Origin: Anaerolineales bacterium
Lineage (GTDB): Bacteria; Chloroflexota; Anaerolineae; Anaerolineales; E44-bin32
Reading direction: 5' to 3'
NCBI GenBank assembly: GCA_037379555.1
Contig: JARRJK010000006.1
Span: forward strand, 21,769-85,768
DNA: 64,000 nt
Part shown: piece after piece, positions 8,647 through 26,715 of the stretch
Layout: each line of letters opens with the position of its first letter
Numbering within the stretch: the stretch's first letter is position 1
The notes under the pieces: generated by a model
Database searches by the model: none
Told to the model about the DNA's origin: nothing
Seen by the model: only the letters and a program-made list of their open reading frames with translations
Translations under genes and position numbers: made by a program

Positions 8647-9747
8647 TCAGGCATGTTCAGCCTGAATGTCCGTCATCTTCTTGCGAAGATTGTCGATCAG
8701 CTGGTGATAGGACTTGCTGAATTTCTCCACGCCCTCATCCAGCAGCTCGTCCGTGACTTGATCGAGGTCGATCCCGGCCGCTGAGAATTTTTCAAGCTCA
8801 GCTTCCGCAGCCTCCAGCTCCTGATCGACGGTCCGTTCGGCGCGACCATGATCCATAACGGCCTCGATCGATTCCGGCGGCAGGGTGTTGACCGTATCGG
8901 GTCCGATCAAGTTATCCACATAGAGCGTATCGGAGTACGAAGGGTCCTTTGTGCTCGTGCTGGCCCACAGAACGCGCTGCGGGCGGGCACCGGCCTCGGC
9001 CAGTTTCTCCCAGCGTTCACCGCTGAACTTCGACTGGAAGCGATGGTAAGCCATCTTGGCATTGGCGATGGCGATCTTTCCCAGCAAATCCGTTTCGCCC
9101 CGTTCCTTCAGCATTGGGTCAACCTTGACATCGATCCGGCTGACGAAAAACGATGCGACCGAAGCCATGCGGCCGATCGCCTGGCCGGATGAGTACCTTT
9201 TTTCGAGCGCGCTGATGTACGCCTCGCTCACGGCATCGTATTGCTCGAGCGAAAACATGAGCGTGATGTTGATCGGCAGCCCTTCGCAGAGCAGCGTGTG
9301 GATCGCCGGAAAGCCCTCATTCGTCGCAGGGATCTTGAACATCACGTTCGGCCGGTCGACCTCCCGGTGCAGGCGGCGGATTTCATCCAGTGTCCTGCGG
9401 GTATCGTGAGCGAGGTCCGGGTTGGCTTCCAGGCTTACGTAGCCATCGGCACCATCCGAAGCGTCAAACACCGGCCGCAGCATGTCGGCCGCCTGCTGAA
9501 TATCTGAAATCGCCATCTTTTCATAGACGGCCTCCACCTCGAGTCCCTTGGTGCGCAGGCGCTGGATATCTGCATCATAATCACCGCTGCCGGTCATCGC
9601 CTTCTCGAATATGGTCGGATTGGAGGTCATCCCGCGTAAACCCTGTTCGATCAAGTACTGGAGTTTTCCGCTGGTGAAGAGCTCACGGCTGATCTGGTCG
9701 ATCCAGACGGATTGTCCCAGTTGGTGAATTTCCTGAAGAGTTGCCAT
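8647..9747 (-). CDS. tal: Transaldolase
   Basis: GQSVWIDQISR...GLRGMTSNPTIFEKA...FKIPAT...VASFFVSRID motifs of the long-form transaldolase family; 366 aa. Confidence 0.9.
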   Translation of the reverse strand: MATLQEIHQLGQSVWIDQISRELFTSGKLQYLIEQGLRGMTSNPTIFEKAMTGSGDYDADIQRLRTKGLEVEAVYEKMAISDIQQAADMLRPVFDASDGADGYVSLEANPDLAHDTRRTLDEIRRLHREVDRPNVMFKIPATNEGFPAIHTLLCEGLPINITLMFSLEQYDAVSEAYISALEKRYSSGQAIGRMASVASFFVSRIDVKVDPMLKERGETDLLGKIAIANAKMAYHRFQSKFSGERWEKLAEAGARPQRVLWASTSTKDPSYSDTLYVDNLIGPDTVNTLPPESIEAVMDHGRAERTVDQELEAAEAELEKFSAAGIDLDQVTDELLDEGVEKFSKSYHQLIDNLRKKMTDIQAEHA

Positions 9748-11793: not shown

Positions 11794-12327
11794 TTGAACT
11801 ACCGGAGGCAGGAAATGGACAGTATGGATAAAACGACAGAAACGACATATACATTCACCGCCCGCAGTTCGCAGGACCCGGCCCGAGTGGCGACATTTAC
11901 ACTGCTTGATGGCCGTGTCTCGGTCGATCTCGGCGTGCCGTTTGAACAGCTCGAGACACTGCTGGAGGAGGAAGAGCCCGGCCAGGAGCAGGAGCGCAAG
12001 CCCTGGATGCGGCCGCTGCTGGTCTCGCTCGCGCAACGCAAGCTGCGCCCATTCCGTCTGGCAGACGTTGAAGCACACACGAAGGGCGATCGGTTGAAGG
12101 TGCGCGCCTGGACACGAGTGGCCGGGCTGCGCCTGGCACCGATCGATTTTTCCTTTGAAGCCGTCGACAATCCTTCTGCCGCTCACGATTTCGTGCGTGA
12201 GCTTCACCACCGTCAGCACGAGAAGCGAACCGCTTCCGCTAGCGGGGGATTGTTCGATTACTGGATTGGCTGGGCAGCTGCTTTTCTGGGAGTGCTTCTC
12301 TTCTTCCGCCGATGGCGGAGAGCATAA
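11794..12327 (+). CDS. Hypothetical protein with a C-terminal transmembrane anchor
   Basis: ORF with no recognisable domain; C-terminal hydrophobic helix (YWIGWAAAFLGVLLFF). Start uncertain (Met codons at 11794, 11815, 11824). Confidence 0.4.
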   Translation: MNYRRQEMDSMDKTTETTYTFTARSSQDPARVATFTLLDGRVSVDLGVPFEQLETLLEEEEPGQEQERKPWMRPLLVSLAQRKLRPFRLADVEAHTKGDRLKVRAWTRVAGLRLAPIDFSFEAVDNPSAAHDFVRELHHRQHEKRTASASGGLFDYWIGWAAAFLGVLLFFRRWRRA

Positions 12328-12380
12328 CTCTAAGCCCAATCGCGTCGCCACGACTTCGACGGTACGAAGGGAAGGACGGT

Positions 12381-13580
12381 ATGAAAGAGGTCAAATATCT
12401 CCTGGTTGGGGGCGGAATGACGGCCGCCGCGGCGGCCAACGCGATCCGCAAAGCTGACCCGCAGGGATCGATCATGATGATCAGCGCAGAGGCTGAGCCG
12501 CCCTACGCTCGACCGCCGCTGAGCAAGGATCTGTGGCGTGAGGGCGAGGTCGATTCGATCTGGCAGGAGCTGCCTGGTGACGGTTTCGAGCTCCTGCTTC
12601 AGCGCTGGGCGGTCGGCCTCGATCCCGGGCAGCACCTCGTGCGCGATGACCACGGCGACGAATACGGCTACACCAGGCTGCTCCTGGCGACAGGCGGCCG
12701 GCCGCGCCAGCTCAAGGACGCCGAGGGCGTGAACTTCTTCCGCACCCTACAGGATTACAGGCGCCTGCGGGCGCAGGCTGAAGAGCTGGAGCGTTTCGCC
12801 GTCATCGGTGGCGGCTTCATCGGTTCGGAGCTTGCCGCAGCCCTTGCGATGCAGGGCAAGCAAGTGGTGCAGGTCTTTCCCGAACCACACATCGGGGCGT
12901 TGATGTTTCCGGATGACCTGGCGCAGGATCTCGAGCGGATATACGCCGAGCGCGGCATCGAGATCCGGGCCGGGGAGCTTGTCTCAGGCGTCGAGCGCTC
13001 CGGAGACGAGTTGACGGTGCATACCGACCGGGATGATTACAGGGTCCAGGCGGCAGTCGGCGGGGTGGGCATCCTGCCAAATGTGGATCTCGCCCGCTCA
13101 GGCGGCCTGAGGGTCCGGGAGGGGATCGTCGTAGATGACCATCTCCGGACATCTGAGAAAGATATCTATGCCGCCGGAGATGTAGCGGAATTCTTCCAGC
13201 CCGATCTGGATACCTACCGCGTCGTGGAGCATGAGGATAACGCGCTCACGATGGGCCGCCAGGCGGGCCGTGCGATGGCGGGCGAAGAAGTCGCCTACGA
13301 TCACATGCCCTATTTCTATTCAGACCTTTTCGACCAGGGCTATGAGGCTGTGGGTGAGATATCACGGGATCACGAAATGGTCAGCGTCTGGCAAGAACCT
13401 TTCCGCAAAGGAATCGTGTACTACCTCTCGGAAGGGCAGGTGCGGGGGGTCCTGCTCTGGAATGTGTGGGAGCGCCGTGAACAGGCCCGCGCGTTGATCG
13501 CGCGCACAGAAGCGGTCACGCGGGAAGAACTCGAGAACGTACCGTTGGATGAACTGATCCAGTTGGAGAAAGCAGCTTGA
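12381..13580 (+). CDS. FAD-dependent pyridine-nucleotide-disulfide oxidoreductase (AIF/ferredoxin-reductase-like)
   Basis: FAD Rossmann YLLVGGGMTAAAAA, NAD Rossmann FAVIGGGFIGSELAA, and YAAGDVAEF. ATG at 12381 preceded by gaaggacgg; the longer ORF start at 12312 overlaps the previous gene. Confidence 0.8.
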   Translation: MKEVKYLLVGGGMTAAAAANAIRKADPQGSIMMISAEAEPPYARPPLSKDLWREGEVDSIWQELPGDGFELLLQRWAVGLDPGQHLVRDDHGDEYGYTRLLLATGGRPRQLKDAEGVNFFRTLQDYRRLRAQAEELERFAVIGGGFIGSELAAALAMQGKQVVQVFPEPHIGALMFPDDLAQDLERIYAERGIEIRAGELVSGVERSGDELTVHTDRDDYRVQAAVGGVGILPNVDLARSGGLRVREGIVVDDHLRTSEKDIYAAGDVAEFFQPDLDTYRVVEHEDNALTMGRQAGRAMAGEEVAYDHMPYFYSDLFDQGYEAVGEISRDHEMVSVWQEPFRKGIVYYLSEGQVRGVLLWNVWERREQARALIARTEAVTREELENVPLDELIQLEKAA

Positions 13581-13640
13581 TGGCGGGGAGGATCTGATGT
13601 GCCTGGCCGCAAAAGGAGACCGATCTCATCGATGATATCC

Positions 13641-14636
13641 ATGGCAAACCGATTTAAAGAAGAGCAGGGCCTGCTCCGGCTGGATGATTTTTCCGAATTC
13701 GTAAGCCAGGAAACGCTGGATCGCATACGGCGTAAAGCTGCGCCGCTCCAGGAGAAGCACATCACGCACATCAATTCGACCTACTACGGCGGCGGGGTGG
13801 CTGAGCTGCTCTCTTCACTGAGCCTGCTGATGAACAGCGTGGGCATCCGGACGGGATGGAGGGTCATTCAGGGAGCGCCGGACTTCTTCAGCGTCACGAA
13901 GAAGATGCACAACGCCCTGCAGGGCGCGGACATCAACCTTTCAGAACGCAAGAAGGAAATCTACCACCACGTCACGGTCCAGAATGCGGTGCGGAATCAT
14001 CTTGATCACGATGTCGTCTACGTTCATGATCCGCAGCCGCTGGGCATGATTGACTACTACGAGAAGAAAGGCCCCTGGATCTGGCGCTGCCACGTGGATC
14101 TCTCACACCCGGATCCCGAATTATGGAATTTCCTGAAACCGTGGGTCGAGAAGTACGACGCCGTGATCACGTCGCTTCCGGAGTACAAGCTGGATCTCAA
14201 GACGCCGCAGCGCTTCATCATGCCGGCAATCGACCCTACATCGATCAAGAACCGCAAATTGAGCAAGGAGGAGATCGACGAACGCTTCGAATACTACGAC
14301 ATACCGCGCGACCTGCCGCTGGTTGTGCAGATCTCGCGCTTCGACCGCTGGAAAGACCCACGCGGCGTGATTGAAGCATTCAAGCTGGCTTCGAAGCGCA
14401 TCGATGCCAGATTGATCCTGCTCGGCAATGTGGCCACAGATGACCCGGAAGGCGAAAAGGTCTACCAGGAGCTGCTCGAATTCAGCGACGACCGCATCCG
14501 GATCATGAGCCGGGAAGACACGGCGCTCGTTAATGCGCTGCAGTGCGAAGCAGCCGTCGTGCTGTGGCACGGTGAGCCAGATCACCACCGCCGCGCCGCC
14601 GCACGAGCTCGGCCTCGGCGACAAGCCCCTGTTTGA
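13641..14636 (+). pseudogene. TreT-like (trehalose synthase family, GT4) glycosyltransferase lacking the C-terminal catalytic segment
   Basis: The N-terminal about 300 aa look like the TreT family (HINSTYYGGGVAELL...WRCHVDLS...VVQISRFDRWKDP...LLGNVATDDPEG...ALVNALQ). After ...AAVVL the frame runs into Arg/Pro-rich nonsense and stops. The GT4 EX7E region (EGFGL..EA) is absent. A different frame at 14570-14670 reads ...HELGLGDKPLFETIYRLKGSAS*, like a displaced native C-terminus. Confidence 0.6.
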
Positions 14637-14685
14637 GACGATCTACCGCTTGAAAGGTAGCGCAAGTTAATTGGGAGGCACGACC

Positions 14686-15051
14686 ATGGCATTACCAGAC
14701 CTGCCGATCGAATACCACAGCGAAGCACGCGGGGTCCCGGAGACGTTGGAGACAGAAGCCCGACGGCACCTGCGGGCTCTGAGCGAAGGACATAAGGATA
14801 TGACGGGAGCCTCCGTGACTATCTCGCGGCCGGAACACGGCGAGACTCCGCATCTGTATCAAGCGCGTGTCATCGTATACATGCGGCCTGAACACGTCAC
14901 AGCATCCGAGAAACACGAAGACCCCGAAATTGCTCTCAAGGGCGCGCTGGGAGCCGTTGAACGACAGATTCGTGAACGTCGCGCCAAACTTAAAGAGAAA
15001 TGGAAGCGGCCTGATCTTTCAGACCCTGCCAGACGACAATTCCAAGAATAG
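14686..15051 (+). CDS. hpf: Ribosome hibernation factor-like protein (HPF/RaiA, S30AE family, short form)
   Basis: gggagg RBS 8 nt before the ATG at 14686. The pattern ...ASVTISRPEHGETPHLYQARVIVYMRPEHVTASEKHEDPEIALKGALGAVERQIRERRAKLKEK fits the beta-alpha-beta-beta-beta-alpha HPF/RaiA family consensus as I remember it. Confidence 0.6.
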   Translation: MALPDLPIEYHSEARGVPETLETEARRHLRALSEGHKDMTGASVTISRPEHGETPHLYQARVIVYMRPEHVTASEKHEDPEIALKGALGAVERQIRERRAKLKEKWKRPDLSDPARRQFQE

Positions 15052-15062
15052 GAGAATTCACC

Positions 15063-16085
15063 ATGGCGAACATCGCAATCAACGGAATGGGACGGATCGG
15101 GCGGGCGGCGCTCAAACAGATCCAGGATCTGCCGGACCTTGAGCTTGTGGCTGTCAATGACCTGATCGACATCGAAAACATCGCTTATCTGCTGAAATAC
15201 GACACGGTCTACGGCCGCATGCCGCAGGCGGTCAGCGTGCAGGATGGCGAGTTGAAGGTGGGTGATCACACCATCCGCTTCCTGCAGGAGCGGGATCCGG
15301 CCAATTTGCCCTGGGGTGAATTGGGGATCGATATCGTGCTTGAATGCACTGGCGTATTTCGCAAGTCCAAAGACTTGCAGAAACACCTGCATGCCGGAGC
15401 GCGGTCTGTCATCCTCTCCGCGCCCGCGAAGGACGATGAGGTGATGACCATCGTGTACGGGGTTAATCAGAGCGAGGTGAAAGAAGGGCATATCGTTTCC
15501 TGCGCAAGCTGCACGACCAACTGCATCACTCCGGTGGTGGAAGTGATCGACCGCCGGATCGGGATTCAGAAAGCGCTGATGACCACCATCCACGCGTACA
15601 CAGCTTCGCAAGGCATCGTCGATGGTCCGAGCAGCAAGTGGCGACGCGGACGTGCGGGTGCGGCCAATCTCGTCCCCACGACGACCGGTGCCGCCCTGGC
15701 GACGACCAAGGCGCTGCCGCAGCTCGAAGGCCGCTTCGACGGCGTTGCGGTGCGCGCACCCGTGCCGGCCGGTTCGGTGGCCGACATGACCTTTCTCGTC
15801 AAGCGGGCGACGACCATCGATGAAGTGAATTCAATCCTGCGCGAGGAAGCCGGTACCGACAGGTATCGAGGGATACTTGGTACTACCGATGATTCGATCG
15901 TTTCGAGCGATATCCTCGGTGATCCTCACGCCTCCATCGTCGATCTGCAGATGACTCAGGTCGTCGATCAAGACTTGGTGAAGATCATGAGCTGGTATGA
16001 CAATGAATGGGGGTACACACGACAGATGCTGCGCGAGGCGGAAAACGTGGCGCAAAACCTCCCGGCGAAAGCGGGGAAGGATTGA
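15063..16085 (+). CDS. gap: Type I glyceraldehyde-3-phosphate dehydrogenase
   Basis: INGMGRIGR NAD-binding N-terminus, catalytic SCASCTTNC, and WYDNEWGY near the C-terminus. Confidence 0.92.
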   Translation: MANIAINGMGRIGRAALKQIQDLPDLELVAVNDLIDIENIAYLLKYDTVYGRMPQAVSVQDGELKVGDHTIRFLQERDPANLPWGELGIDIVLECTGVFRKSKDLQKHLHAGARSVILSAPAKDDEVMTIVYGVNQSEVKEGHIVSCASCTTNCITPVVEVIDRRIGIQKALMTTIHAYTASQGIVDGPSSKWRRGRAGAANLVPTTTGAALATTKALPQLEGRFDGVAVRAPVPAGSVADMTFLVKRATTIDEVNSILREEAGTDRYRGILGTTDDSIVSSDILGDPHASIVDLQMTQVVDQDLVKIMSWYDNEWGYTRQMLREAENVAQNLPAKAGKD

Positions 16086-16386: not shown

Positions 16387-17190
16387 GTGCCTGAACTTCC
16401 TGACGTCGAGGTGTTCAGACGCTATGTCGACGCGACCGCACTGCACAAGACGATACATGATGTCGATATCCAGGCCGAAAGGATTCTGGAGGGCAGCTCG
16501 AGCCGCTCGTTCACCCGCGCCTTGAAGGGCAAGGCATTTGAGTCGAGCCGGCGCCATGGCAAATACCTCTGCCTGGAGTTGACGAACGGCCGCTGGCTGG
16601 TGCTGCACTTCGGCATGACAGGAAGCCTGAAATACTTTCTGCACTCCGAGGATGAGCCGGATTACACCTACGCGCTGTTCACGTTCAGCAATGACTACCA
16701 CCTGGCCTTCCTCAACCCGCGCAAACTCGGTACGTTGGCGATCTATGACAGCGTTGCGGCGCTGATCGAGGATAAGGATCTCGGACCGGATCCGCTTGAA
16801 GTGGGGTTTACTTTCGAGGACTTCAAACATGTGCTGCAGGGCCGGCGCGGCATGCTGAAGTCCACCCTGATGAATCAGTCGATCCTCGCCGGTATTGGAA
16901 ATGTGTATTCGGATGAGATCCTCTTCCAACTCGGTTGGTATCCGCGCGGCAAGGTCGATCGGCTGGATGAGGAGGGGCTGCATGCTTTCTACCGCACGAT
17001 GCGGCACGTTTTGCGCGAGGCGGCTGAGCGCGAGGCTGATCCAGCACGGTTTCCGGATTCCTGGCTCATCCCCCATCGCAGACCCGGCGCAAGCTGCCCT
17101 CGGTGCAGGGGCGAGGTTCAGAAGATCAAGGTCGTTGGACGGTCCGGCTATTTTTGTCCCGCTTGCCAGAAGAAGTTAGGTTCGACGTGA
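16387..17190 (+). CDS. mutM: Formamidopyrimidine-DNA glycosylase / Nei family (Fpg)
   Basis: Catalytic N-terminus (M)PELPDVE, H2TH region (MNQSILAGIGNVYSDEILF) and C-terminal zinc finger CPRCRGEV...YFCPACQ. GTG start. Confidence 0.85.
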   Translation: MPELPDVEVFRRYVDATALHKTIHDVDIQAERILEGSSSRSFTRALKGKAFESSRRHGKYLCLELTNGRWLVLHFGMTGSLKYFLHSEDEPDYTYALFTFSNDYHLAFLNPRKLGTLAIYDSVAALIEDKDLGPDPLEVGFTFEDFKHVLQGRRGMLKSTLMNQSILAGIGNVYSDEILFQLGWYPRGKVDRLDEEGLHAFYRTMRHVLREAAEREADPARFPDSWLIPHRRPGASCPRCRGEVQKIKVVGRSGYFCPACQKKLGST

Positions 17191-17202: not shown

Positions 17203-17808
17203 ATGGGAGATGAAAGCGTGAGCAAGAAGGATTCACTGAAAGAGTACGAAAGCAAGCGAGATTTCCGAAAGACCCCTGAACCTAGCGGTGAAGGGGGTAA
17301 AGCATCCGATAAGCCGGTCTTTGTGATCCAGAAGCACGATGCCAGGTCGCTGCACTATGACTTCCGGCTGGAGGTCGACGGCGTGCTGAAATCCTGGGCA
17401 GTTCCGAAGGGCCCGTCGACAGACCCGAGTCAGAAGCGGCTGGCGGTCCCGACCGAGGATCACCCGCTGGATTACGCCTCGTTTGAAGGAGTGATCCCCG
17501 AGGGTGAATACGGGGCGGGAACCGTCATGGTGTGGGATCATGGTCCCTACCGCAACTTGCGAGCGGAGAAGAAAGACGATGGGTTATCAATGGAAGATGC
17601 GATCGATGATGGAAAGGTGGAGGTCTGGTTGGATGGTGAGAAGTTGCGTGGGGGATATGCTCTAATCCGCACCGGCGGCGATGAACGCTGGCTGATGATC
17701 AAGATGGATGATGACGAGGCCGACGCACGCCGCAACCCAACCAGCACTGAACCGGATTCGGTCATCAGCGGCCGGTCGCTGGAAGAGATCGCAGCCGGCG
17801 GATCATGA
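17203..17808 (+). CDS. Stand-alone LigD 3'-phosphoesterase (PE) domain protein
   Basis: KRDFRKTPEP...FVIQKHDARSLHYDFRLE...LKSWAVPKGPS...EDHPLDY motifs of the LigD PE domain. Confidence 0.85.
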   Translation: MGDESVSKKDSLKEYESKRDFRKTPEPSGEGGKASDKPVFVIQKHDARSLHYDFRLEVDGVLKSWAVPKGPSTDPSQKRLAVPTEDHPLDYASFEGVIPEGEYGAGTVMVWDHGPYRNLRAEKKDDGLSMEDAIDDGKVEVWLDGEKLRGGYALIRTGGDERWLMIKMDDDEADARRNPTSTEPDSVISGRSLEEIAAGGS

Positions 17809-18812
17809 GTCCAGCTTCACTGATCGACCGCTATCCAGGATCCGGATTGAAGGAGCGTGAACTGCCGCAGTGGGTGGAGCCAATGCTGGCGACGCTCACC
17901 GATAAGCACTTCTCGCGAGAGGGGTGGATCTTCGAGCGCAAGTTCGATGGTGAACGTTGTCTGGCTTTCCGGAATGGAAAGCAGATCAACCTGTTCACGC
18001 GCAATCACAAACCGCTCAACGATACATATCCTGAGCTGGCAGAGGCCTTACAAAAACAGGAGCCGCAGCGATTTATCGTGGATGGCGAAGTCGTGGCTTT
18101 CGAGGGCAACCGGACCAGCTTCGCGAGGTTGCAGGAACGCATGCAGATCAAGGATCCGCAGAAAGCCCACGCTTCAAAGATCGCAGTCTACTATTACATC
18201 TTTGACATCCTCTATCTCGATTCATACGATACGCGTGGTCTGGACCAGCGTGATCGCAAACAGCTGCTGAAGGAAAGCCTGCAGTTTGAGGATCCGCTGC
18301 GCTACACGGCTCATCGCAACACCGACGGCCAGCAGTATTTCAAGCAGGCATGTAAGCGCGGCTGGGAGGGCGTGATCGCGAAAGAGGCTGACGCTTCCTA
18401 CGCCCATGGTCGCTCCACCCACTGGCTTAAATTCAAGTGCGTGAAGGAACAGGAGTTCGTCATCGGCGGTTTCACCGACCCGCAGGGCTCGCGCATCGGG
18501 TTTGGCGCCCTGTTGGTGGGGTACTACGAAGGTTCGGCGCTCCGCTACGCCGGCAAGGTTGGGACCGGTTACGACGATCAAACGCTCAGACAGCTCCATA
18601 ACAAGCTGAGCGGCCTCGAGCGCGAGAATCCGCCTTTCAAGACAGAGGGCGATCTTCCCGCTACAGGAGTCCACTGGACGCAGCCGGAACTCGTCGTCCA
18701 GGTTGGCTTTGAAGAGTGGACCGACGATCTGCGGCTGAGGCAGCCGCGCTACCTTGGTTTGCGTGATGATAAATCACCGCAGACTGTGCACAGGGAGAAG
18801 GCAGATTCATGA
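17805..18812 (+). CDS. ligD: ATP-dependent DNA ligase (LigD ligase domain, stand-alone)
   Basis: Adenylation motif I region WIFERKFDGERCLA, EGVIAK motif and an OB-domain C-terminus. The start overlaps the PE stop (ATGA at 17805-17808). Confidence 0.9.
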   Translation: MSPASLIDRYPGSGLKERELPQWVEPMLATLTDKHFSREGWIFERKFDGERCLAFRNGKQINLFTRNHKPLNDTYPELAEALQKQEPQRFIVDGEVVAFEGNRTSFARLQERMQIKDPQKAHASKIAVYYYIFDILYLDSYDTRGLDQRDRKQLLKESLQFEDPLRYTAHRNTDGQQYFKQACKRGWEGVIAKEADASYAHGRSTHWLKFKCVKEQEFVIGGFTDPQGSRIGFGALLVGYYEGSALRYAGKVGTGYDDQTLRQLHNKLSGLERENPPFKTEGDLPATGVHWTQPELVVQVGFEEWTDDLRLRQPRYLGLRDDKSPQTVHREKADS

Positions 18813-19732
18813 GCGATGAGCTCGAAATCGATGACCACACGGTGGAAATATCTCACCGCGAGAAGCTTTTCTTCCCGGATGAGGGGTTGACGAAGGGCGA
18901 TCTGGTCGATTACTACCGGCGCATCGCGGAGGTCATGCTGCCGCATCTCAAAGGACGCCCGATCAGCATGCAGCGCTTTCCCGATGGAATCACGGGCGAG
19001 GGCTTCTATCAGAAAGAAGCGCCGGACTATTTTCCGGACTGGATTCAGCAGGTGGATGTGCTGGTTGAAGGGGAGGGCGAAAAACAACCTCAGGTCATCG
19101 TCGATGGGGCCGCGACACTCGTCTACCTGGCAAACCAGGCTTGCATCACGCCGCACACCTGGCTGAGCAGGGCTGGCCGGCTTGACCAGCCGGATAAGCT
19201 CATCTTTGATCTCGACCCTCCGGGTGACGATTTCAATGTCGTTCGGGAGGCGGCATATGCTTTACACAATATGCTGGAGGAGATCAGACTGGTTTCCTAT
19301 GTCATGACGACAGGCTCGCGGGGCCTGCACGTCGTCCTGCCGTTAAAATCCGGCGCGGGGTTCGACAACGTCCGTGACTTCGCACATGAGATCGCCGCTG
19401 CGCTGGCTGCGAGGGAACCCGAGAAGTGGACAGTCGAGGTGAGAAAAGCGAAGCGCGATGGCCGGCTGTTCCTGGATACCATGCGCAATGCGTATGCTCA
19501 AACTTCTGTCCCGCCGTACGCCGTCCGAGCCCTTCCCGCTGCTCCGGTCGCCACTCCGATCGAATGGGATGAACTGAGCGATCACAAACTGAACTCGCAG
19601 ACCTATTCAATGATGAATATCTTCCGCCGCCTGGGCCAGAAATCAGATCCGTGGATCGACATCTACGATAAAGCCGTCTCCCTGGATCATGCCTGGGAGC
19701 GATTCGCCACCTGGTCTGAAAATCGAGGCTAA
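18809..19732 (+). CDS. Stand-alone LigD primase-polymerase (Pol/AEP) domain protein
   Basis: SHREKLFFPDEGLTKGDL..YY, QRFPDGI, LIFDLDP and TGSRGLHVVLPL motifs of NHEJ polymerase domains. The start overlaps the ligase stop (ATGA at 18809-18812). Confidence 0.85.
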   Translation: MSDELEIDDHTVEISHREKLFFPDEGLTKGDLVDYYRRIAEVMLPHLKGRPISMQRFPDGITGEGFYQKEAPDYFPDWIQQVDVLVEGEGEKQPQVIVDGAATLVYLANQACITPHTWLSRAGRLDQPDKLIFDLDPPGDDFNVVREAAYALHNMLEEIRLVSYVMTTGSRGLHVVLPLKSGAGFDNVRDFAHEIAAALAAREPEKWTVEVRKAKRDGRLFLDTMRNAYAQTSVPPYAVRALPAAPVATPIEWDELSDHKLNSQTYSMMNIFRRLGQKSDPWIDIYDKAVSLDHAWERFATWSENRG

Positions 19733-19763: not shown

Positions 19764-19798
19764 GCCTCCCCGGCCATGGCCGGGGAGGTCTTTGTTTC
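19764..19798 (+). terminator. Rho-independent terminator after the LigD genes
   Basis: cctccccggcc-at-ggccggggagg stem followed by tctttgtttcc. Confidence 0.65.
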
Positions 19799-19818: not shown

Positions 19819-20466
19819 TTACGTTTTTTTCGGGGGCAGTTGATTCACAAGATCGGAGACAACAGCTAATTTAACCCGGTCCTCGTCGATCTCGCTCACC
19901 CAGCTGATCGGAACATTTTTCTTCTCTTTCAAGAGCAGGCCCTCTGAGATCACGAACTGGGTGATCCTGTGGGATTCGGGGTCGCTGAAGATCTGTTCGA
20001 TGTCGCCGACCTTCTTGCCTTTCACATCGTAAACGGGCGCATTCTCCTTGATGGCCACATCACCCGGATCGATGTGCCGTTCTTTCTCTTCAATTAGTGG
20101 CTGCGGGCTGGCTACCGGGATGGCGGGCGATGCGGAGGCGTACGGGCTGGGGACGACGGGTATCAGTGGGACCGGCTTGAGGCTAGGGTAGTCGTCCCGA
20201 TCGACATCACCGATATATAGATAGTTGGTCTCCTCGAACTCCGGCAGTTCCTCCAGCATATCCTCATCGAGCCGCAGCGTCACGCGATCCTCGTCTGCCA
20301 TCTCGATCAGGTTGACCGGCACGACCCGGTCTTCCTTGAACAGCAGCCCTTTTTCGATGATGATATCGGTCACAGATTTCGTGACCGGATCGATCACCAC
20401 CCGCTCGATGTCGCCGATGTGTTCACCTCTACTGCTGATCACTTTCGTACCTGGTTTGAATTTCAT
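19819..20466 (-). CDS. Tandem PRC-barrel domain protein
   Basis: Two copies of a PRC-barrel-like module (GTKVISSRGEHIGDIERVVIDPVTKSVTDIIIEKG... and APVYDVKGKKVGDIEQIFSDPESHRITQFVISEG...) separated by a Pro-rich linker. Confidence 0.7.
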   Translation of the reverse strand: MKFKPGTKVISSRGEHIGDIERVVIDPVTKSVTDIIIEKGLLFKEDRVVPVNLIEMADEDRVTLRLDEDMLEELPEFEETNYLYIGDVDRDDYPSLKPVPLIPVVPSPYASASPAIPVASPQPLIEEKERHIDPGDVAIKENAPVYDVKGKKVGDIEQIFSDPESHRITQFVISEGLLLKEKKNVPISWVSEIDEDRVKLAVVSDLVNQLPPKKT

Positions 20467-20537
20467 CTTTAACCATCCTTTCTGTTGGCTGATGTGCTGT
20501 TTCGAGCGCTTGCACCAACCATCGATTTCAGCTCGGA

Positions 20538-21713
20538 TTATTCCTGCGGTTCGGCATAGCGCAGCAGCGCCGCGGCGAGATCGTCACCCGGCATGTCTTC
20601 GGCACTGATGCTGAACACCTGACCATCAGCCTGCAGTGTGTAGATTGCTGCCAGGTTCATCAGGTCTTCAGCCGTGGGGCTCCGGCCGTTCCCATCTGTC
20701 AATTTGATTCCGCTCTCGGAATAGTTGCCCCATAGGTGCTGGTTCCGGCACAGGAGAAGCGTGTCAACCTGTCCGTAATGGGCGGCTTTCAGCAAACGAT
20801 AAATCGAGTTTTCGGTCCGTCCTTCGATCGACCGGGCGTTGAGATACCGCTGCACAGCCTGTGCGGGCCGGCCATCACGTGCATTCGACACGGTCTCGCG
20901 CGCCTGTTCGGCAAGCTGACCCGAGTCGAGCAGATCGGGATTTCCGCCGATACGGCTGATGACCTGGACACCCTCGGCTAGCAGATCGTTGAATTCGCTG
21001 GTGATTTCATCCACTCCTGCCAGGATCAAAACATTCCCGCTGCCCAGGAGGTGCCGTTCGACCGGTGCAGCGACTTGCTGCAAATAGCGCCGCAGATTGG
21101 ATAAATCATCGTTTGATCCGGCGCCGTGGCCGTGGAACATCACAGGTTTTGAGGCCCGTTCCGCCCGGTCACTGGTGTGCAACTGGAGCTGTCGTTCCGG
21201 ATCGTCGAAAGCCAGCGCTTCTTCCATATTGGACGGAGCACCATTGAGTTCGATGGGTGTGACTTGCTCAGCATCTACTGTGAAGAAGCGGTTGCCCCCC
21301 TTGCTGATCGCAAGGACGAAGAACGACTGTTCCCGCTGCAGATCGAACAGCAGGGGACGAACGTACGGGTGCCGGCTTATGAAGCAGGCTGGTTCGGGGC
21401 TGTGCCGCAGGCGGATATAAAGTGGTTCCTCCGGCGTGATGTAGATCGCGAGGCCCGGCGAAGCCTGCTGCCAGAATTCACGCTCGTCGAGCAGGGCTTC
21501 GGCTGGTTTACGCAGTTCTTCGGCTTCGGGACCTCGCAGGCCGTACTCTGCCAGGTGTTCTTCAGCCTCGGTCAGCAAATTCTTGAGCTGGATGCGATCA
21601 CCTTTCCACTCGCCACCCACCCGGCGCGTTGGCAGGATAAACGTCAGGCACCATTCACCTTCGATCCCAATGAGCTGATGGATAACTTCACCTGAAAGCT
21701 TGTACTCGTCCAT
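20538..21713 (-). CDS. Bacterial eRF1/Pelota-like (baeRF-type) protein
   Basis: The N-terminus CLTFILPTRRVGGEWKGDRIQLKNLL and the C-terminal eRF1-domain-3-like part (KAAHYGQVDTLLL...DLMNLAAIYTLQADGQVFSISAEDMPG..LAAALLRY) match baeRF3/7-type proteins as I remember them. No GGQ tripeptide anywhere in the 391 aa. Confidence 0.6.
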   Translation of the reverse strand: MDEYKLSGEVIHQLIGIEGEWCLTFILPTRRVGGEWKGDRIQLKNLLTEAEEHLAEYGLRGPEAEELRKPAEALLDEREFWQQASPGLAIYITPEEPLYIRLRHSPEPACFISRHPYVRPLLFDLQREQSFFVLAISKGGNRFFTVDAEQVTPIELNGAPSNMEEALAFDDPERQLQLHTSDRAERASKPVMFHGHGAGSNDDLSNLRRYLQQVAAPVERHLLGSGNVLILAGVDEITSEFNDLLAEGVQVISRIGGNPDLLDSGQLAEQARETVSNARDGRPAQAVQRYLNARSIEGRTENSIYRLLKAAHYGQVDTLLLCRNQHLWGNYSESGIKLTDGNGRSPTAEDLMNLAAIYTLQADGQVFSISAEDMPGDDLAAALLRYAEPQE

Positions 21714-21818
21714 ATCGAGACCTCCTTACCACACAACCCGCAGCTCTCCCTGAGCGCCGCGTTCTGCCGGAAAGAACCGCCAGGGTACCTCCCGGCAGAA
21801 CAAAGGCTGGGGACGCTG

Positions 21819-22238
21819 TTAGATTCCGCGCAGCACCCGGGCCAGCTCACGGGCATGCTCAGATTCATCGGCCGCCATTTCTTCGAGCTTTAGCTTCAGC
21901 TCGACCTCGCCCAGTGCTTCTGCGGCCTGAGCGTGCTGCTTGTAATTCACAACATCCTGCAGCTCGAGCTTGAGATCCTGTTCGAGCATGTCCTTAAGAT
22001 TCTCGGTCGGCTTGAACTCCTTCGGTTTGAGCGTCGGCTCACCGCCTAGGTCGACGATAACGTCACTCAGGAATGTGGCGTGACCGAGTTCGTCCGGGAT
22101 CTCGCCGCGCAGCATCTCGCGCATTGAAGGAGCCTCGGGCCCCGACGCTTTGCTGGCCTGGTAGTTGTAGCGGATGATCGTCCCCAATTCGGCGGACAGA
22201 TCCTGGTTGAGCATATTGATCAGGTCTTTCTTCGACAT
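21819..22238 (-). CDS. Ferritin-like diiron four-helix-bundle protein (bacterioferritin-related)
   Basis: Four-helix pattern with paired metal ligands: SAELGT, PDELGH (ExxH), LKLELQD, ADESEH (ExxH). Confidence 0.75.
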   Translation of the reverse strand: MSKKDLINMLNQDLSAELGTIIRYNYQASKASGPEAPSMREMLRGEIPDELGHATFLSDVIVDLGGEPTLKPKEFKPTENLKDMLEQDLKLELQDVVNYKQHAQAAEALGEVELKLKLEEMAADESEHARELARVLRGI

Positions 22239-22282
22239 GTTTACTCCTTAAATTTGTCTGCTTTAAGCTTGTTTGAAATGTC

Positions 22283-23422
22283 TCAGGCGCTGCGGCCAGC
22301 CTCGAGACGCTTCGAAAACAGCGTCGGGCTGCTCGTCGCGAGCTGATAAATCTCGCTGATGTCACGGCTGGTGATGATTCCCAGGAACTTTCCGTCCTTG
22401 CTTACCGGCAGCGCGTCGTAGCTATTCTTGGAGAGCTTCTGCTGGACCTGGAACAGTTCGTCTGAAGGGCTAATGAGCGGCACTTCGGTCAGCATGATCT
22501 GATCGATCGGTGTATCCACTGGCCGCTTCTTGAGTGCCTGCACCATTGTCTGAAGCGTGAGTAAGCCAACCACCTCACCGTCTTCGCATACGGGGAAGTT
22601 CGCTTGCGAGGAGTGCAGGGTTAGGTCGGCGGCATCCTGCAGCGTTTGATCAGGCGACAACGTGCTTACATTGCGTGAGTAAGCATCTTCCGCCCGCAGA
22701 TTGCGCAGCACGCTGCGCAGGTGAACCATACGGCCTTCCATTCCAGCGCCCATGTAAATAAAGATGGCAATCAGAATCAGCAGCAGGTTCCCGGACATGA
22801 AACCCCACAAGCCCAGCCCCCAGGCTGCAATCTGGCCGACGACGACAGCAATGTCCGTGGCGCGCGTATACTCAAGGCGCGTCGCTAACAGCGCCCGCAG
22901 GACTCGACCGCCGTCCATCGGGAAAGCCGGCAGCAAGTTGAATGCTCCGATGAATATGTTGGTGGCGAATACGTAGAGGAAGATCGATTCAAACGTCAGC
23001 CTGCCGATATTAGACATCAATGCGCTGGTGTTTGGCAGGTTGTTCGGCAGCAGGTTCCTCCCTGCCAGAACGAGCAGTATAGCCAATACCAGGTTCACCG
23101 CCGGACCGGCGATAGAGATTGCCAGCTCCTGGGAGGGCTTTTCCGGGATGTTTTCCATCTGCGATACGCCGCCGATTGGCAGCAGCACGATGCGCTTTAC
23201 CGGGATATCAAATCCGCGCGCTGTGAGCGCGTGGCCGAGCTCGTGCAGCACAACGATGGCGAACAAGATCAGCGTCACGATGACACCGAACGCAGCTCCC
23301 TCCCAGCCCTGGCCGGTGAAAACGCCAAAATAGAAGGCACCCCAGAGCAAGATCAAGGGAAATGTGAAGTGCATGCGGATTTCGATTCCACGGATGCGGA
23401 AGAGTGTGATGGCGTTATTCAT
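22283..23422 (-). CDS. M50 site-2 metalloprotease with a C-terminal CBS pair
   Basis: HELGHAL zinc motif in a TM helix, a second ligand region NLLPAFPMDGGRV, and two CBS modules at the C-terminus. ATG at 23422 has a ggagg RBS; the ORF extends to 23470. Confidence 0.85.
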   Translation of the reverse strand: MNNAITLFRIRGIEIRMHFTFPLILLWGAFYFGVFTGQGWEGAAFGVIVTLILFAIVVLHELGHALTARGFDIPVKRIVLLPIGGVSQMENIPEKPSQELAISIAGPAVNLVLAILLVLAGRNLLPNNLPNTSALMSNIGRLTFESIFLYVFATNIFIGAFNLLPAFPMDGGRVLRALLATRLEYTRATDIAVVVGQIAAWGLGLWGFMSGNLLLILIAIFIYMGAGMEGRMVHLRSVLRNLRAEDAYSRNVSTLSPDQTLQDAADLTLHSSQANFPVCEDGEVVGLLTLQTMVQALKKRPVDTPIDQIMLTEVPLISPSDELFQVQQKLSKNSYDALPVSKDGKFLGIITSRDISEIYQLATSSPTLFSKRLEAGRSA

Positions 23423-23688
23423 AACATACCTCCGAAGCTCTCTGCCTTGCTCTCGATTCCAACGAGGCATGAAGGCTTGCTGAGTTCTAATACCTTATCT
23501 ATCTTGATTTTCACGCGCAGGGATAAAGAAGTGCTTGCATCTTGCGCTTGACTCTTGCGAACTTCTTACGATGCGCTACGGGCGAACCAGTTGGTAAGCT
23601 AAAGGACGGGAGCGCGCTGTTCTCCAGGGCTGCCGCCTGTCTGATATAAATAGGGTAGATCTGCGTCGTGATATCAAGGAGGTCGTGC

Positions 23689-23859
23689 ATGCCGTTGACA
23701 GCCAAAGACAGGCAGCGCAAGCGCAAACAGCGCAGGCAGCGCAAGCTGCGCAAGCTAAAACGCCGCTTCGAGGCGTCTGGGGACGCCCGTGAGCGTCAGA
23801 AGCTTGAGCAGAAGATACGCAACATTCAGCCTGGATGGGAGCCGGGGGGCGAAGGCTGA
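23689..23859 (+). CDS. Small highly basic protein (56 aa, Arg/Lys-rich)
   Basis: aaggagg RBS 6 nt before the ATG at 23689. Sequence MPLTAKDRQRKRKQRRQRKLRKLKRRFEASGDARERQKLEQKIRNIQPGW.... Sits 70 nt upstream of otsA-otsB on the same strand. Confidence 0.45.
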   Translation: MPLTAKDRQRKRKQRRQRKLRKLKRRFEASGDARERQKLEQKIRNIQPGWEPGGEG

Positions 23860-23928
23860 ACGGTGGGTCGTGCTCAGCGGAGCGGTAGGACTATGGGCCG
23901 CCCGCGGGTATGAAAGACGGGAGATAAA

Positions 23929-26157
23929 TTGAACACTGCCGGGAAAGCGCAACAGCTGACCGAGCGGCTGCTGGTCGTATCGAACCGGCTTCCCGTGACT
24001 GTCAACCGCCAGGATGATGGCCAGTTCGACTACACGCCGAGTGTGGGTGGGTTGGCAACTTCCCTCAACGCGCTGCGTGAAGAGATGGATATGCTCTGGC
24101 TGGGCACGCCGGGGCTGAATGTCGAGGATTCATCTGAACAACAGACGCTTCGCGATGAGTTGGAGCAGAAGTACGATAGCATACCGCTCTTCCTCGACCG
24201 GAAGGATTTCGAACTCTACTATAATGGCTTCAGCAATGGCTGCCTGTGGCCGTTGTTTCATTATTTCCCCCAGTTCGCACACTTCGATGAGCAGGAATGG
24301 GCCGCCTATCAGTCGGTAAACAGGATCTTCGCCGAACGCATCACCAGCATCGCCGGGCCCAATGACAGCATCTGGGTGCATGATTATCATTTGCTGCTGC
24401 TTCCCACCCTTCTGCGCCAGGCGCTGCCTGATGCGTCGATCGGTTTCTTTCTCCACATCCCCTTCCCCTCCTATGAGATCTTCCGCATGCTTCCATGGCG
24501 CGAGCAGATTTTGAGTGGAATGATCGGCGCCGACCTGGTCGGGTTCCATACCTACGGTTACGCCCGCCACTTCCTGAGCTCACTGCTGCGAATCCTCGGC
24601 CTGGAGCAGAATTTCGGCCGGGTTTCGGTGGGGGATCGCATTGTCCAGGTTGAAACCTTTCCGCTGGGGATTGACACCGAGCGATTTGCCCACGCCCAGG
24701 ACCTGCCGGCCGTGCAAACCCGCTTGCGCGAGTTGAAAGATGAGATTGGCGGCAGAAAGGTCATTCTCTCCGTAGATCGGTTGGATTTCACCAAAGGCAT
24801 CCTTGAGCGGTTGATGGCCTACGAGCATTTCCTTGAGGAACATCCGGAATGGCATGACCGCGTGAGTTTGGTCTCGCTTCTTGTGCCATCCCGTACGCGC
24901 GTTCCAGAGTATCAGAGCCTCAAGAGCCAGGTTGATGAGCAAATTGGCAGGATCAATGGGGAATTCGGTCAGCCTGGCTGGAATCCGATCACGTACCTCT
25001 ACCGCTCTTTGCCCTTCGAGCAGTTGGCTTCGCTCTACCTGCTCGCTGACGTCGCGCTGGTTACGCCTTTGCGTGACGGCATGAACCTGGTGGCGAAAGA
25101 ATATCTCGCCTCGCATACCGATGGGAGCGGCGTGCTCGTATTGAGCGAAACGGCCGGCGCCGCGGCCGAGCTGGGCGAAGCCTTAATCGTCAACCCTCAT
25201 GATCAGGAAGGGCTGGTACGGGCGCTCGATCAGGCGCTATCGATGCCGGTGGAGGAGCAAAGGACCCGCAACGCGCCGATGCGGGCCAGGCTCTCACGCT
25301 ACGATATCAACCGCTGGACCACGGAGTTCCTCGCCCAGCTGCGTGGCCTGCGTGAGGCGCGCCGGCTCCAGCTGCCGCGCCGTTTGCAGGGTGAACACCG
25401 CGCTGAACTGATGGAAGCGTATCGCTCTGCCAATCACCGGCTGCTGCTGCTGGACTACGACGGCACGCTGGTGCCCTTTGCGCAGACTCCCGGTGGAGCG
25501 AGCCCGGATCCGGAGCTCGTGGATTTGATCCGACAGCTCTCGTCTGATGCGCGCAACCAGGTGGTCGTGATCAGCGGACGCAACGCCAGCACGCTCGAAG
25601 CGTGGTTGGGTAAGACAGGTGCCGATCTGGTCGCCGAACATGGCGCCCGCATCCGGCGGTCGGAAAGCGCCGATTGGGAGCCGTTCGCCGAGAATCTGGA
25701 CGGCGATTGGAAGGACCAGCTGCGGCCGCTGTTCGAGGTATTTGTCGACCGCACGCCAGGGTCGCTGCTGGAGGAAAAAGGCGCGGCGCTGGTCTGGCAT
25801 TACCGCCGTGCGGACCCCGATCTCGGATCGCAGCGTGCAGCTGAGCTGATCGATGCGCTCGAGGGCTTTATCGCCAACACCAATCTGCATGTGCTGCAGG
25901 GGCATAAAGTGGTTGAGGTAAAACCGAGCACGGTCAGCAAGGGCCGGGCTGCGGGTCCCTGGTTGCAAGCGGAGCCGCCTGCGGAATTCACGCTCGTCAT
26001 GGGCGATGACGTGACGGATGAAGCCATGTTCGAGGCCGTCCCGGAGGGTTCGTGGACGGTGAAAATTGGGTCACCGGAGGGCTCGCACGCCCGTTTCTTC
26101 CTCTCCAGTACGGCCGATGTGCGGGCCCTGTTGAAGGCCATGGCCGGTATTTCTTGA
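23929..26157 (+). CDS. otsA: Bifunctional trehalose-6-phosphate synthase / trehalose-6-phosphate phosphatase (OtsA-OtsB fusion)
   Basis: GT20 N-terminal half ([10 protein letters not shown]...GGLATSL...[11 protein letters not shown]...DRLDFTKGI...[14 protein letters not shown]). HAD phosphatase C-terminal half ([13 protein letters not shown]...VVVISGR...[10 protein letters not shown]). TTG start at 23929. Confidence 0.9.
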
Positions 26158-26268
26158 GCTGATTCCCGTTCTCTAACATTTCGCTGATGTTGCTCCAACT
26201 CCAATTTAACGTTTGGGATGTACCTTAATCATAGCAACCATCTCAACGGAAAAAGAGGAGGTGTCGCA

Positions 26269-26715
26269 ATGACAATGCTTACACGTTGGGAACCTTTTCG
26301 AGAGATGCGTCGCTTGACCGATTTGCTTGACCGGACGATCGACGATGCCTGGTTGCGGGGCGCCTCTGATGGTGACCTCGAGGGTCCAGCACCCATCGAT
26401 GTCTACGAGACCGATGATGACGTTGTGGTGAAGGCCGTCATGCCAGGCGTGAAGGCGGATGATATCAGCATCTCCGTCGACCGCGATGTGCTGACCTTGC
26501 GCGGCGAGTCCACGTCCAAGACGGAAGAGCAGGACAAGGAACGCGCATACCACTTCCGCGAGATTCGCTATCGGCGCTATGGACGCTCGCTGCGCCTGCC
26601 GACGCTTGTCGATTCGGAGAAGGCCAAGGCTGAGTTTGAGGATGGTATCCTCACCCTCACCCTGCCCAAGGCTGAAGTCGTCAAGCCAAAGACGATCACC
26701 GTCAAAGCCAAGTAA
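26269..26715 (+). CDS. Hsp20/alpha-crystallin small heat-shock protein
   Basis: aggagg RBS. MLTRWEPFREM..., alpha-crystallin core (PIDVYETDDDVVVKAVMPGVKADDISISV...LTLRGE...RSLRLP...A.FEDGILTLTLPK). Confidence 0.9.
   Translation: MTMLTRWEPFREMRRLTDLLDRTIDDAWLRGASDGDLEGPAPIDVYETDDDVVVKAVMPGVKADDISISVDRDVLTLRGESTSKTEEQDKERAYHFREIRYRRYGRSLRLPTLVDSEKAKAEFEDGILTLTLPKAEVVKPKTITVKAK

Follow-up and report, generated by a model that had tools for sequence, protein, structure and literature searches.

A Balon-family protein within a probable dormancy and desiccation gene island of an Anaerolineales bacterium

Introduction

Within a 64,000-nucleotide (nt) stretch of DNA from an Anaerolineales bacterium (Chloroflexota; assembly GCA_037379555.1, contig JARRJK010000006.1, forward-strand positions 21,769 to 85,768), hereafter referred to as the window, four minus-strand genes follow one another closely. 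In order of reading, they encode a site-2 (M50) intramembrane metalloprotease with a C-terminal CBS pair, a small diiron ferritin-like protein, a 391-residue eRF1-like protein and a tandem PRC-barrel protein (Table 1). An earlier reading of these genes from the sequence alone, hereafter the original prediction, considered them a candidate for an uncharacterised, ribosome-directed dormancy or stress module and argued for a conserved functional unit. Here, we identify the 391-residue protein as a homologue of the ribosome hibernation factor Balon and weigh how far its three neighbours belong with it.

Balon is AOC03_06830 of Psychrobacter urativorans and, according to its 2024 description, occupies the A site together with EF-Tu in cold shock and stationary phase (PMC10901736). 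The same paper reports A-site binding and inhibition of translation for Msmeg1130 of Mycobacterium smegmatis and Rv2629 of Mycobacterium tuberculosis, and places Balon genes in stress-response operons beside RaiA and Hsp20. Since then, a Balon homologue of Synechocystis, not necessarily of the subfamily to which the 391-residue protein belongs, has been observed on native ribosomes in hibernation, alongside the HPF homologue LrtA; it is reported to contact rRNA via residues unlike those of the Psychrobacter protein (bioRxiv 10.64898/2026.07.03.736309).

Results

The 391-residue protein is a full-length Balon homologue

The coordinates of the four open reading frames (ORFs), checked in the window, and their Pfam matches bear out a co-directional minus-strand string with gaps of 44, 105 and 71 nt, as well as its divergence from a plus-strand unit of a small basic ORF, otsA-otsB and hsp20 (23668-26715). 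Inspection of the third gene product reveals a full-length homologue of Balon, as judged by sequence profile and predicted fold. The best NCBIfam match is NF052287, 'AOC03_06830 family ribosome hibernation factor', for which residues 12-386 align with positions 2-361 of 361. Profile hidden Markov model (HMM) comparison with the baeRF models, a check proposed with the original prediction, returns Pfam baeRF_family7, 6 and 3 (E=3e-26 to 2e-21). A family profile built from 39 homologues of the protein matches Balon chain 8rd8_B end to end among PDB sequences (E=3.6e-43, 6-383 on 2-369); the same profile reaches Msmeg1130 at E=9e-12 and Rv2629 at E=0.14. Such a profile is required, as a single-sequence phmmer search of the PDB sequences gives no meaningful match.

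Structure prediction points in the same direction. The AlphaFold model of the protein has a predicted local distance difference test (pLDDT) score of 86.6, and Foldseek ranks 1-6 against the PDB are all ribosome-bound Balon, Msmeg1130 or Rv2629 (template-modelling (TM) scores of 0.59-0.72), with the Balon-type chain 8rdv_B matched at E=1e-21 and TM 0.67/0.72. The release and rescue factors aRF1, eRF1 and Pelota rank below these chains. Neither GGQ nor NIKS occurs in the translated sequence. The predicted eRF1/Pelota-like nature of a protein without GGQ is thus upheld by both profile search and sequence. Its label as a member of an uncharacterised family with no demonstrated biochemical role is, in contrast, outdated; Balon was characterised in 2024 (PMC10901736), and NCBIfam now includes 'ribosome hibernation factor' models that match the 391-residue protein.

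At the place equivalent to the lasso loop and bL27 trap of the Balon middle domain, the model contains a low-confidence loop (residues 184-198, pLDDT below 50) whose sequence is unlike that of Balon. The subfamily alignment shows no conserved Gln in the loop at the GGQ-equivalent position. Within this disordered loop, residues 193-197 form a motif, FHG(H/Q)G, that is conserved in the Balon subfamily of the 391-residue protein, while P. urativorans Balon lacks it and eRF1 has HGRGGQ there. Relatives at 28-36% identity are distributed among Chloroflexota, Cyanobacteria (30-34%), Desulfobacterota, Zixibacteria, Gemmatimonadota, Bacillota and other groups.

The protease, ferritin-like and PRC-barrel proteins

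The protease contains HELGH and NLLPAFPMDGGR, and the HExxH and NxxPxxPxDGGR motifs are invariant in its alignment (H76, E77, H80, N178, P181, D186, G187). Its closest PDB matches include mjS2P of Methanocaldococcus jannaschii (3b4r, E=3e-42) and SpoIVFB of Bacillus subtilis (E=1e-13), and two CBS stretches are matched at the C-terminus (E=4e-19). The start of the protein is most likely Met17 (23422) of the 395-residue ORF, giving a predicted 379 residues: GGAGG lies 6 nt upstream of this ATG, the gene call in a 79%-identical relative starts at the equivalent Met, and the alignment with M. tuberculosis Rip3 begins there too. Like SpoIVFB and mjS2P, the enzyme has HExxH and NxxPxxxxDG in its M50 core, and cytoplasmic CBS domain(s) come after that core. 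It differs in its setting, as no pro-sigma, anti-sigma or membrane-tethered regulator is encoded near it and BofA or SpoIVFA-like inhibitors are absent at the locus; a sigma factor, anti-sigma factor or membrane-anchored regulator that might serve as substrate does not appear among its annotated neighbours. What the CBS domain does in such proteases is still debated (PMC11486902), and ATP dependence of SpoIVFB was reported in 2009 work, as cited in the same article.

The ferritin-like protein carries two ExxH motifs (ELGH and ESEH) and spans positions 1-137 of the 142 in the Pfam Ferritin model. Its best PDB match is 2qqy_A (E=2e-24 over 4-137), a 149-residue chain whose molecule name in the deposition is 'Sigma B operon', with bacterioferritins next. 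The two proteins share full-length homology, similar size, the diiron ligand pattern and an encoding among stress genes. In contrast, 2qqy comes from another phylum with another regulator, and oligomer formation and iron storage are at most predicted for the window protein.

In its model (pLDDT 77), the tandem PRC-barrel protein forms two barrels, with a disordered Pro-rich linker (residues 110-135) between them. Structure comparison places it near archaeal CdpB PRC proteins and the reaction-centre H subunit; the 50 structural matches listed include no ribosomal protein. A RimM-like action of the barrels, namely binding of the 30S subunit, was considered and is unsupported, with no ribosome-related neighbour in the structure search. 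A search of 5.8 billion proteins finds only 42 homologues of this tandem (PRCx2) protein. Among PRC-barrel stress proteins from dehydration or dormancy settings, the cyanobacterial AvaK family and DR1314 of Deinococcus are the nearest parallels, and AvaKa is required for dehydration tolerance in Anabaena (PMC9804601). The window protein differs in combining PRC with a second, DUF2171-like PRC barrel and no DUF2382, and it belongs to a small separate family.

Balon neighbourhoods share a variable pool of stress genes

Two censuses address how regularly the four families occur together. One is centred on Balon and covers 80 species-representative genomes (922 kb of flanking DNA), with loci found via a 12-sequence alignment; the other is centred on the protease and covers its 80 closest metagenomic relatives (33-62% identity, 489 kb of flank). 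All counts were taken at the domain level; an iterated 'M50' HMM drifted to CBS-only proteins and a 'TreT' HMM to generic GT4 enzymes. Individual loci are cited below by L numbers.

The full four-gene order is present only in L001-L003, where Balon is 79% identical and the whole island is kept; conservation there is simple synteny. Elsewhere, all four families occur together in one of the 80 genomes: in L060 (Chloroflexia), a segment of 6.6 kb spans, in another order, Balon, M50-CBS, PRCx2 and an EncFtn-like ferritin. L024 has Balon, M50-CBS and PRCx2, again in an order differing from the window. The reverse census finds neither a Balon nor a PRC gene at any of the 80 protease-centred loci. 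The exact string is therefore lineage-specific, and the view of its four genes as a conserved functional unit does not survive.

Pairwise links give a different picture. An M50-CBS gene lies within 8 kb of Balon in 7/80 genomes (L005, L007, L022, L024, L025, L060 and L081), always on the same strand and directly adjacent in three, and the linkage spans Chloroflexota, Desulfobacterota, Nitrospirota and Actinomycetota. With an assumed copy number, 0.2-0.7 such cases would be expected against the seven observed (Poisson P <= 8e-6). PRC-barrel genes occur in 9/80 Balon loci, as well as in L004, versus 0/80 protease-centred control loci (Fisher P=0.003). The PF00210 ferritin, in contrast, accompanies Balon in 1/80 species, in addition to the EncFtn-like gene of L060. 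The expectation that these partners co-occur above chance is thus upheld for the protease and PRC genes and fails for ferritin. The Balon-M50-CBS and Balon-PRC links are real but confined to a minority of genomes, and the string draws its genes from a stock of stress genes that gather near Balon in varying combinations.

The variability of these neighbourhoods is pronounced, with no family in more than 14 of the 80 loci. L022 (Nitrospirota) combines Balon with Fpg, LigD phosphoesterase and M50-CBS; in L005 (Desulfobacteraceae), Balon is followed by MscS, DUF72, Fpg and M50-CBS; L081 (Acidimicrobiia) has M50-CBS, a GH65 glycoside hydrolase and Balon; and L026 has HPF directly upstream of Balon. 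The proteases near Balon in other phyla are 23-29% identical to that of the window. L085, with a PRC protein 48% identical to that of the window, carries Hsp20-OtsAB-small ORF, Balon-MFS-PRCx2 and Fpg-GAPDH-HPF with neither protease nor ferritin. Look-ups centred on PRCx2 mostly lack Balon: L086 shows Hsp20-M50-CBS-PRCx2; L087 a DUF2383 ferritin-like gene, PRCx2 and the dnaK operon; L089 and L091 other stress genes, including Hsp20, BON-domain and rubrerythrin-like genes; and L088 and L090 none of these stress families.

Several further arrangements were observed around Balon. Two Calothrix genomes have an AvaK-like gene (PRC + DUF2382) as the immediate upstream neighbour of Balon (L015 7051-7905, L029 6922-7842). 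Two Desulfobacterota carry a Balon homologue within or at the end of an F-type ATPase operon, as atpA-Balon-atpG (L005 6370-10062) and atpA-atpG-Balon (L073 5028-9092), an unexpected link between ATP synthase genes and a hibernation factor gene. In a Chloroflexota metagenome-assembled genome (L004 7667-9167), an IF1-like gene (eIF-1a, PF01176) is 23 nt upstream of Balon on the same strand, with a PRC-barrel gene downstream. Three Chloroflexota (L024 1689-3840, L060 5829-7944 and L007 5846-7957) share a conserved upstream arrangement of a response regulator, a 120-160-residue protein that no Pfam model matches and a BrkB/YihY membrane protein; the regulator is of LuxR type in L024 and L060, the L007 gene being outside that scan. 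Downstream, the same three have M50-CBS and a glycoside hydrolase/GT4 pair, possibly for a compatible solute.

The dormancy locus of M. tuberculosis

The proposed parallel with the DosR locus of M. tuberculosis holds. The PDB deposition of Rv2629, solved on the ribosome, bears the name 'Ribosome hibernation factor Balon (Rv2629)'. By exact-match look-up, the Rv2625c sequence is 'Putative zinc metalloprotease Rip3', with Pfam M50 and CBS matches; the whole of it can be aligned to the window protease (27% identity, E=3e-25), as well as to the protease that lies near Balon in the Acidimicrobiia locus L081 (36% identity, E=2e-58). The two genes belong to adjacent DevR-controlled operons, Rv2626c-Rv2625c-Rv2624c and Rv2628-Rv2629-Rv2630-Rv2631 (PMC3177182).

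Comparison of the Rv2624c-Rv2631 locus with the window reveals both likeness and difference. An M50-CBS protease and a Balon protein are encoded in adjacent stress-induced operons, and the HPF-like Rv0079, the alpha-crystallin HspX and the OtsB Rv2006 of the same regulon complete a functional set whose counterparts are physically clustered in the window. In M. tuberculosis, by contrast, these genes are scattered over the regulon and placed in two separate operons, Hrp1 (a CBS pair) and universal stress proteins accompany them, and no ferritin or PRC-barrel gene is reported there. RtcB is presumably also among the genes accompanying this locus.

Transcription signals in and around the string

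Each of the three downstream genes (ferritin, Balon and PRC) is preceded by its own Shine-Dalgarno sequence. A hairpin separates the stop codon of ferritin from the start codon of Balon; L001 has the same outer stem, GTTCTGCCGG/CCGGCAGAAC, but a different loop. The two sequences compared, from the window and L001, fold to the same 14-15-bp stem (z = -2.2 and -3.4), with no clean U-tract after the window hairpin. This element is possibly an attenuator, partial terminator or processing site, and may set different levels for the protease-ferritin and Balon-PRC pairs. A second, GC-rich hairpin between the convergent LigD PrimPol and PRC genes is likely a bidirectional terminator that closes the string.

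The upstream end of the string coincides with a divergent control region in which blocks are conserved in the 79% relative. A sigma-70 consensus scan of 19.5-24 kb finds no promoter-like site, and an Rfam scan of 12-27 kb finds no RNA family at E<=0.1. Among 11 island intergenic regions, the only shared 10-mers are two chance-like pairs; therefore, no common operator was found among them. A CAAG heptad repeat considered in the divergent region was rejected, given its irregular spacing and 0 matches in a pattern search.

The surrounding stress island

The string is situated inside an island of ~14 kb that holds genes for HPF/RaiA, two trehalose routes, Hsp20, GAPDH, Fpg and LigD functions (Table 1). 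The short HPF/RaiA gene is 5.5 kb from the Balon gene, between TreT and GAPDH, and Hsp20 is 4.5 kb away. HPF is also found in the L001 and L085 loci, and both keep the small ORF/OtsAB/Hsp20 unit next to Balon. With two hibernation factors and two trehalose routes, plus a small heat-shock protein, a protein for iron and oxidative stress and genes for DNA repair, the island makes up a coherent dormancy and desiccation set.

Table 1. Genes and signals of the string and its island, by window position.
Feature	Position	Strand	Remarks
AIF-like pyridine-nucleotide oxidoreductase	12312-13580	+	Island, convergent part
TreT (truncated)	13599-14636	+	Island, convergent part
Short HPF/RaiA	14671-15051	+	Pfam Ribosomal_S30AE, 32.4 bits vs cut-off 23.7
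GAPDH	15063-16085	+	Island, convergent part; a small ORF follows, before Fpg
Fpg	16387-17190	+	Island, convergent part
LigD phosphoesterase, ligase and PrimPol (three genes)	17203-19732	+	Convergent with the four-gene string
GC-rich 11-bp hairpin	19764-19789		Between convergent LigD PrimPol and PRC genes
Tandem PRC-barrel protein (PRC + DUF2171), Pro-rich linker	19819-20466	-	215 residues; Pfam PRC-barrel (two stretches) and DUF2171
Balon-family eRF1-like protein, three domains	20538-21713	-	391 residues; Pfam baeRF_family7/6/3
Conserved RNA hairpin, 41 nt	21761-21801	-	Between ferritin stop codon and Balon start codon; terminator-like
Small diiron ferritin-like four-helix protein (bacterioferritin/Dps-like, general-stress type)	21819-22238	-	139 residues; Pfam Ferritin PF00210, full length
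Site-2 (M50) intramembrane metalloprotease, C-terminal CBS pair	22283-23470	-	395 residues; Pfam Peptidase_M50 and two CBS stretches
Divergent control region	23423-23667		Shared with small-ORF/OtsAB/Hsp20 unit
Small basic ORF, weak DUF6800 match	23668-23859	+	Heads divergent stress unit
OtsA-OtsB fusion	23929-26157	+	Divergent stress unit
Hsp20	26218-26715	+	Divergent stress unit

Individual island genes have features of their own. TreT is apparently damaged, with ~93 C-terminal glycosyltransferase residues missing relative to the 93%-identical TreT of L001; the final 12 residues carry on in a different frame, near 14564-14667, which makes a pseudogene or an assembly error possible. The small ORF is very basic; its DNA is nearly invariant in the 79% relative, and in L085 it is again found directly divergent from Balon (counterparts at L001 5894-6064 and L085 4854-5021). 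Its product may be a small stress protein that is conserved, or possibly one that binds nucleic acid or ribosomes. The LigD functions for non-homologous end joining are split, with the phosphoesterase, ATP-dependent ligase and PrimPol as separate overlapping genes beside Fpg; Fpg and the LigD phosphoesterase are again found beside Balon in Nitrospirota (L022), and Fpg in Desulfobacteraceae (L005). At a distance of a few kb from Balon, a transaldolase gene is present both in the window (8647-9747, minus strand) and in two distant Chloroflexota loci (L024 288-1424 and L060 4576-5685).

Discussion

The 391-residue protein shares with Balon (P. urativorans, Msmeg1130 and Rv2629) a full-length, three-domain, aeRF1-like architecture without GGQ and NIKS, a flexible loop at the GGQ-equivalent position and a stress-operon setting with HPF/RaiA and Hsp20. 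It differs in its best Pfam model and in the middle-domain FHGHG, which is specific to its own subfamily. P. urativorans Balon, reconstructed for the Pfam scan from the profile alignment, scores best on baeRF_family3 and also on 7 and 6, while the 391-residue protein scores on 7, 6 and 3; these overlapping scores place it in a sister subfamily of Balon. By sequence, it is not an ortholog-level member of either curated NCBIfam family, the second of which, NF052289, gives 18.5 bits against a cut-off of 320. From homology and the predicted fold, a role on dormant ribosomes is very likely, with ribosome binding itself as a prediction. It follows from the Balon homology that the term 'ribosome-directed dormancy' is right for this one gene, and that it names biology already known; no evidence ties the protease, ferritin or PRC protein to ribosomes, and this part of the original prediction is unsupported.

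We consider it likely that the string is the centre of a lineage-specific dormancy and desiccation island, in which co-regulated stress genes surround a Balon-type hibernation factor. Its homology suggests that the 391-residue protein would be brought, probably by EF-Tu, to the A site of ribosomes that are idle or still elongating, where it would keep the peptidyl-transferase centre inert and protect ribosomes in starvation or drying, acting alongside the short HPF/RaiA encoded nearby. The protease, ferritin and PRC proteins would be products of co-expressed stress genes, as opposed to subunits of a ribosome machine. The ferritin-like protein may sequester iron and limit oxidative damage; the tandem PRC-barrel protein would belong to a stress-associated class comparable to AvaK in cyanobacterial dehydration tolerance; and the M50-CBS enzyme may be a nucleotide-gated intramembrane protease that cuts some membrane substrate. 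Transcription would probably start in the divergent region, run through protease and ferritin, be modulated at the conserved hairpin, and continue through Balon and PRC to stop at the strong hairpin.

A number of observations weigh against this interpretation. The NF052287 score of the 391-residue protein is 99.7 bits against an equivalog cut-off of 330, and its pairwise identity to P. urativorans Balon is 20%. At the tip of the N-domain, its segment TRRVGGEW aligns with THREHPAN of Balon and has no HP dipeptide, so the 'HP motif' that contacts the decoding centre is unrecognisable; in addition, the His of the subfamily-conserved PTHR is Arg. A conserved hairpin interrupts the string, whose co-transcription is presumed. 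The M50-CBS enrichment depends on an assumed 1-3 copies per 4-Mb genome as opposed to a measured background, and common ancestry among part of the 80 loci means that the counts do not represent independent cases.

A more ambitious reading, close to the original prediction, which we regard as quite unlikely, has the CBS-gated protease, diiron and PRC proteins work in physical contact with Balon on ribosomes that are stalled or hibernating. In one such scheme, the protease would respond to adenylate charge and thereby govern how Balon is loaded or removed, and the PRC barrels would bind 30S as the PRC domain of RimM does. The co-directional genes with short gaps, the rearranged gatherings in L060 (four families) and L024 (three), the M50-CBS/Balon linkage in four phyla and the DosR locus, the AvaK-like PRC genes directly upstream of Balon in Calothrix, and the CBS modules of several recently described archaeal hibernation factors all speak for such a device. 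These are outweighed by the restriction of the gene order to close relatives, by L085, which retains Balon, PRC and the island with neither protease nor ferritin, and by the empty reverse census; PRCx2 contexts mostly lack Balon, the PF00210 ferritin is near it in a single species, the Balon-adjacent proteases of other phyla are distant from that of the window, and the PRC model resembles cell-division and reaction-centre proteins as opposed to ribosomal ones.

The opposite extreme, a Balon hibernation factor with three unrelated neighbours that share no regulation and are held in order by descent, is very unlikely. Under such an account, the enrichments would reflect shared ancestry of the sampled genomes and general clustering of accessory genes, as the reverse census from the protease, the highly variable Balon neighbourhoods and the failure to find a shared promoter motif among the island intergenic regions would suggest. 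Against it stand the seven of seven M50-CBS genes on the Balon strand across four phyla, the recurrence of Fpg, LigD phosphoesterase, M50-CBS, TreT, GAPDH and PRC around Balon in distant phyla (for instance, L022) and the control of both M. tuberculosis operons by DevR (PMC3177182). Finally, the chance that the 391-residue protein is an active peptidyl-tRNA hydrolase or a Pelota-like splitting factor instead of a hibernation factor is close to negligible: it has the fold of aRF1, eRF1 and Pelota, its subfamily has FHGHG where eRF1 has GGQ, and Burroughs and Aravind considered rescue roles for baeRF proteins (PMC6514570), but it has no GGQ and no conserved Gln in the loop, its closest solved relatives are all non-catalytic hibernation factors, and its setting is one of HPF and stress genes with no rescue partners.

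The core of the preferred reading, a Chloroflexota-type Balon member at the heart of a stress island, falls within the stress-operon setting already published (PMC10901736). Neighbouring S2P, CBS, PRC and ferritin genes are unmentioned in the searchable text of that paper and of the baeRF survey (PMC6514570), and the recurrent Balon-M50-CBS (four phyla) and Balon-PRC/AvaK links are the only new leads, modest ones. It is rather doubtful, though conceivable, that CBS-bearing site-2 proteases are functionally coupled to Balon hibernation, such that a nucleotide- or energy-sensing protease controls entry into or exit from dormancy; this could proceed by cleavage of a membrane-tethered regulator or by removal of the factor on resuscitation. 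Such a coupling would be old enough to include Chloroflexota, Desulfobacterota, Nitrospirota and Actinomycetota, with the Rv2625c-Rv2629 pair among them, and PRC (AvaK-like) proteins would be a second partner. If either Balon link is functional, it would offer a starting point for understanding how hibernation through Balon is turned on or off, and would suggest a role for the orphan M. tuberculosis dormancy protease Rip3/Rv2625c.

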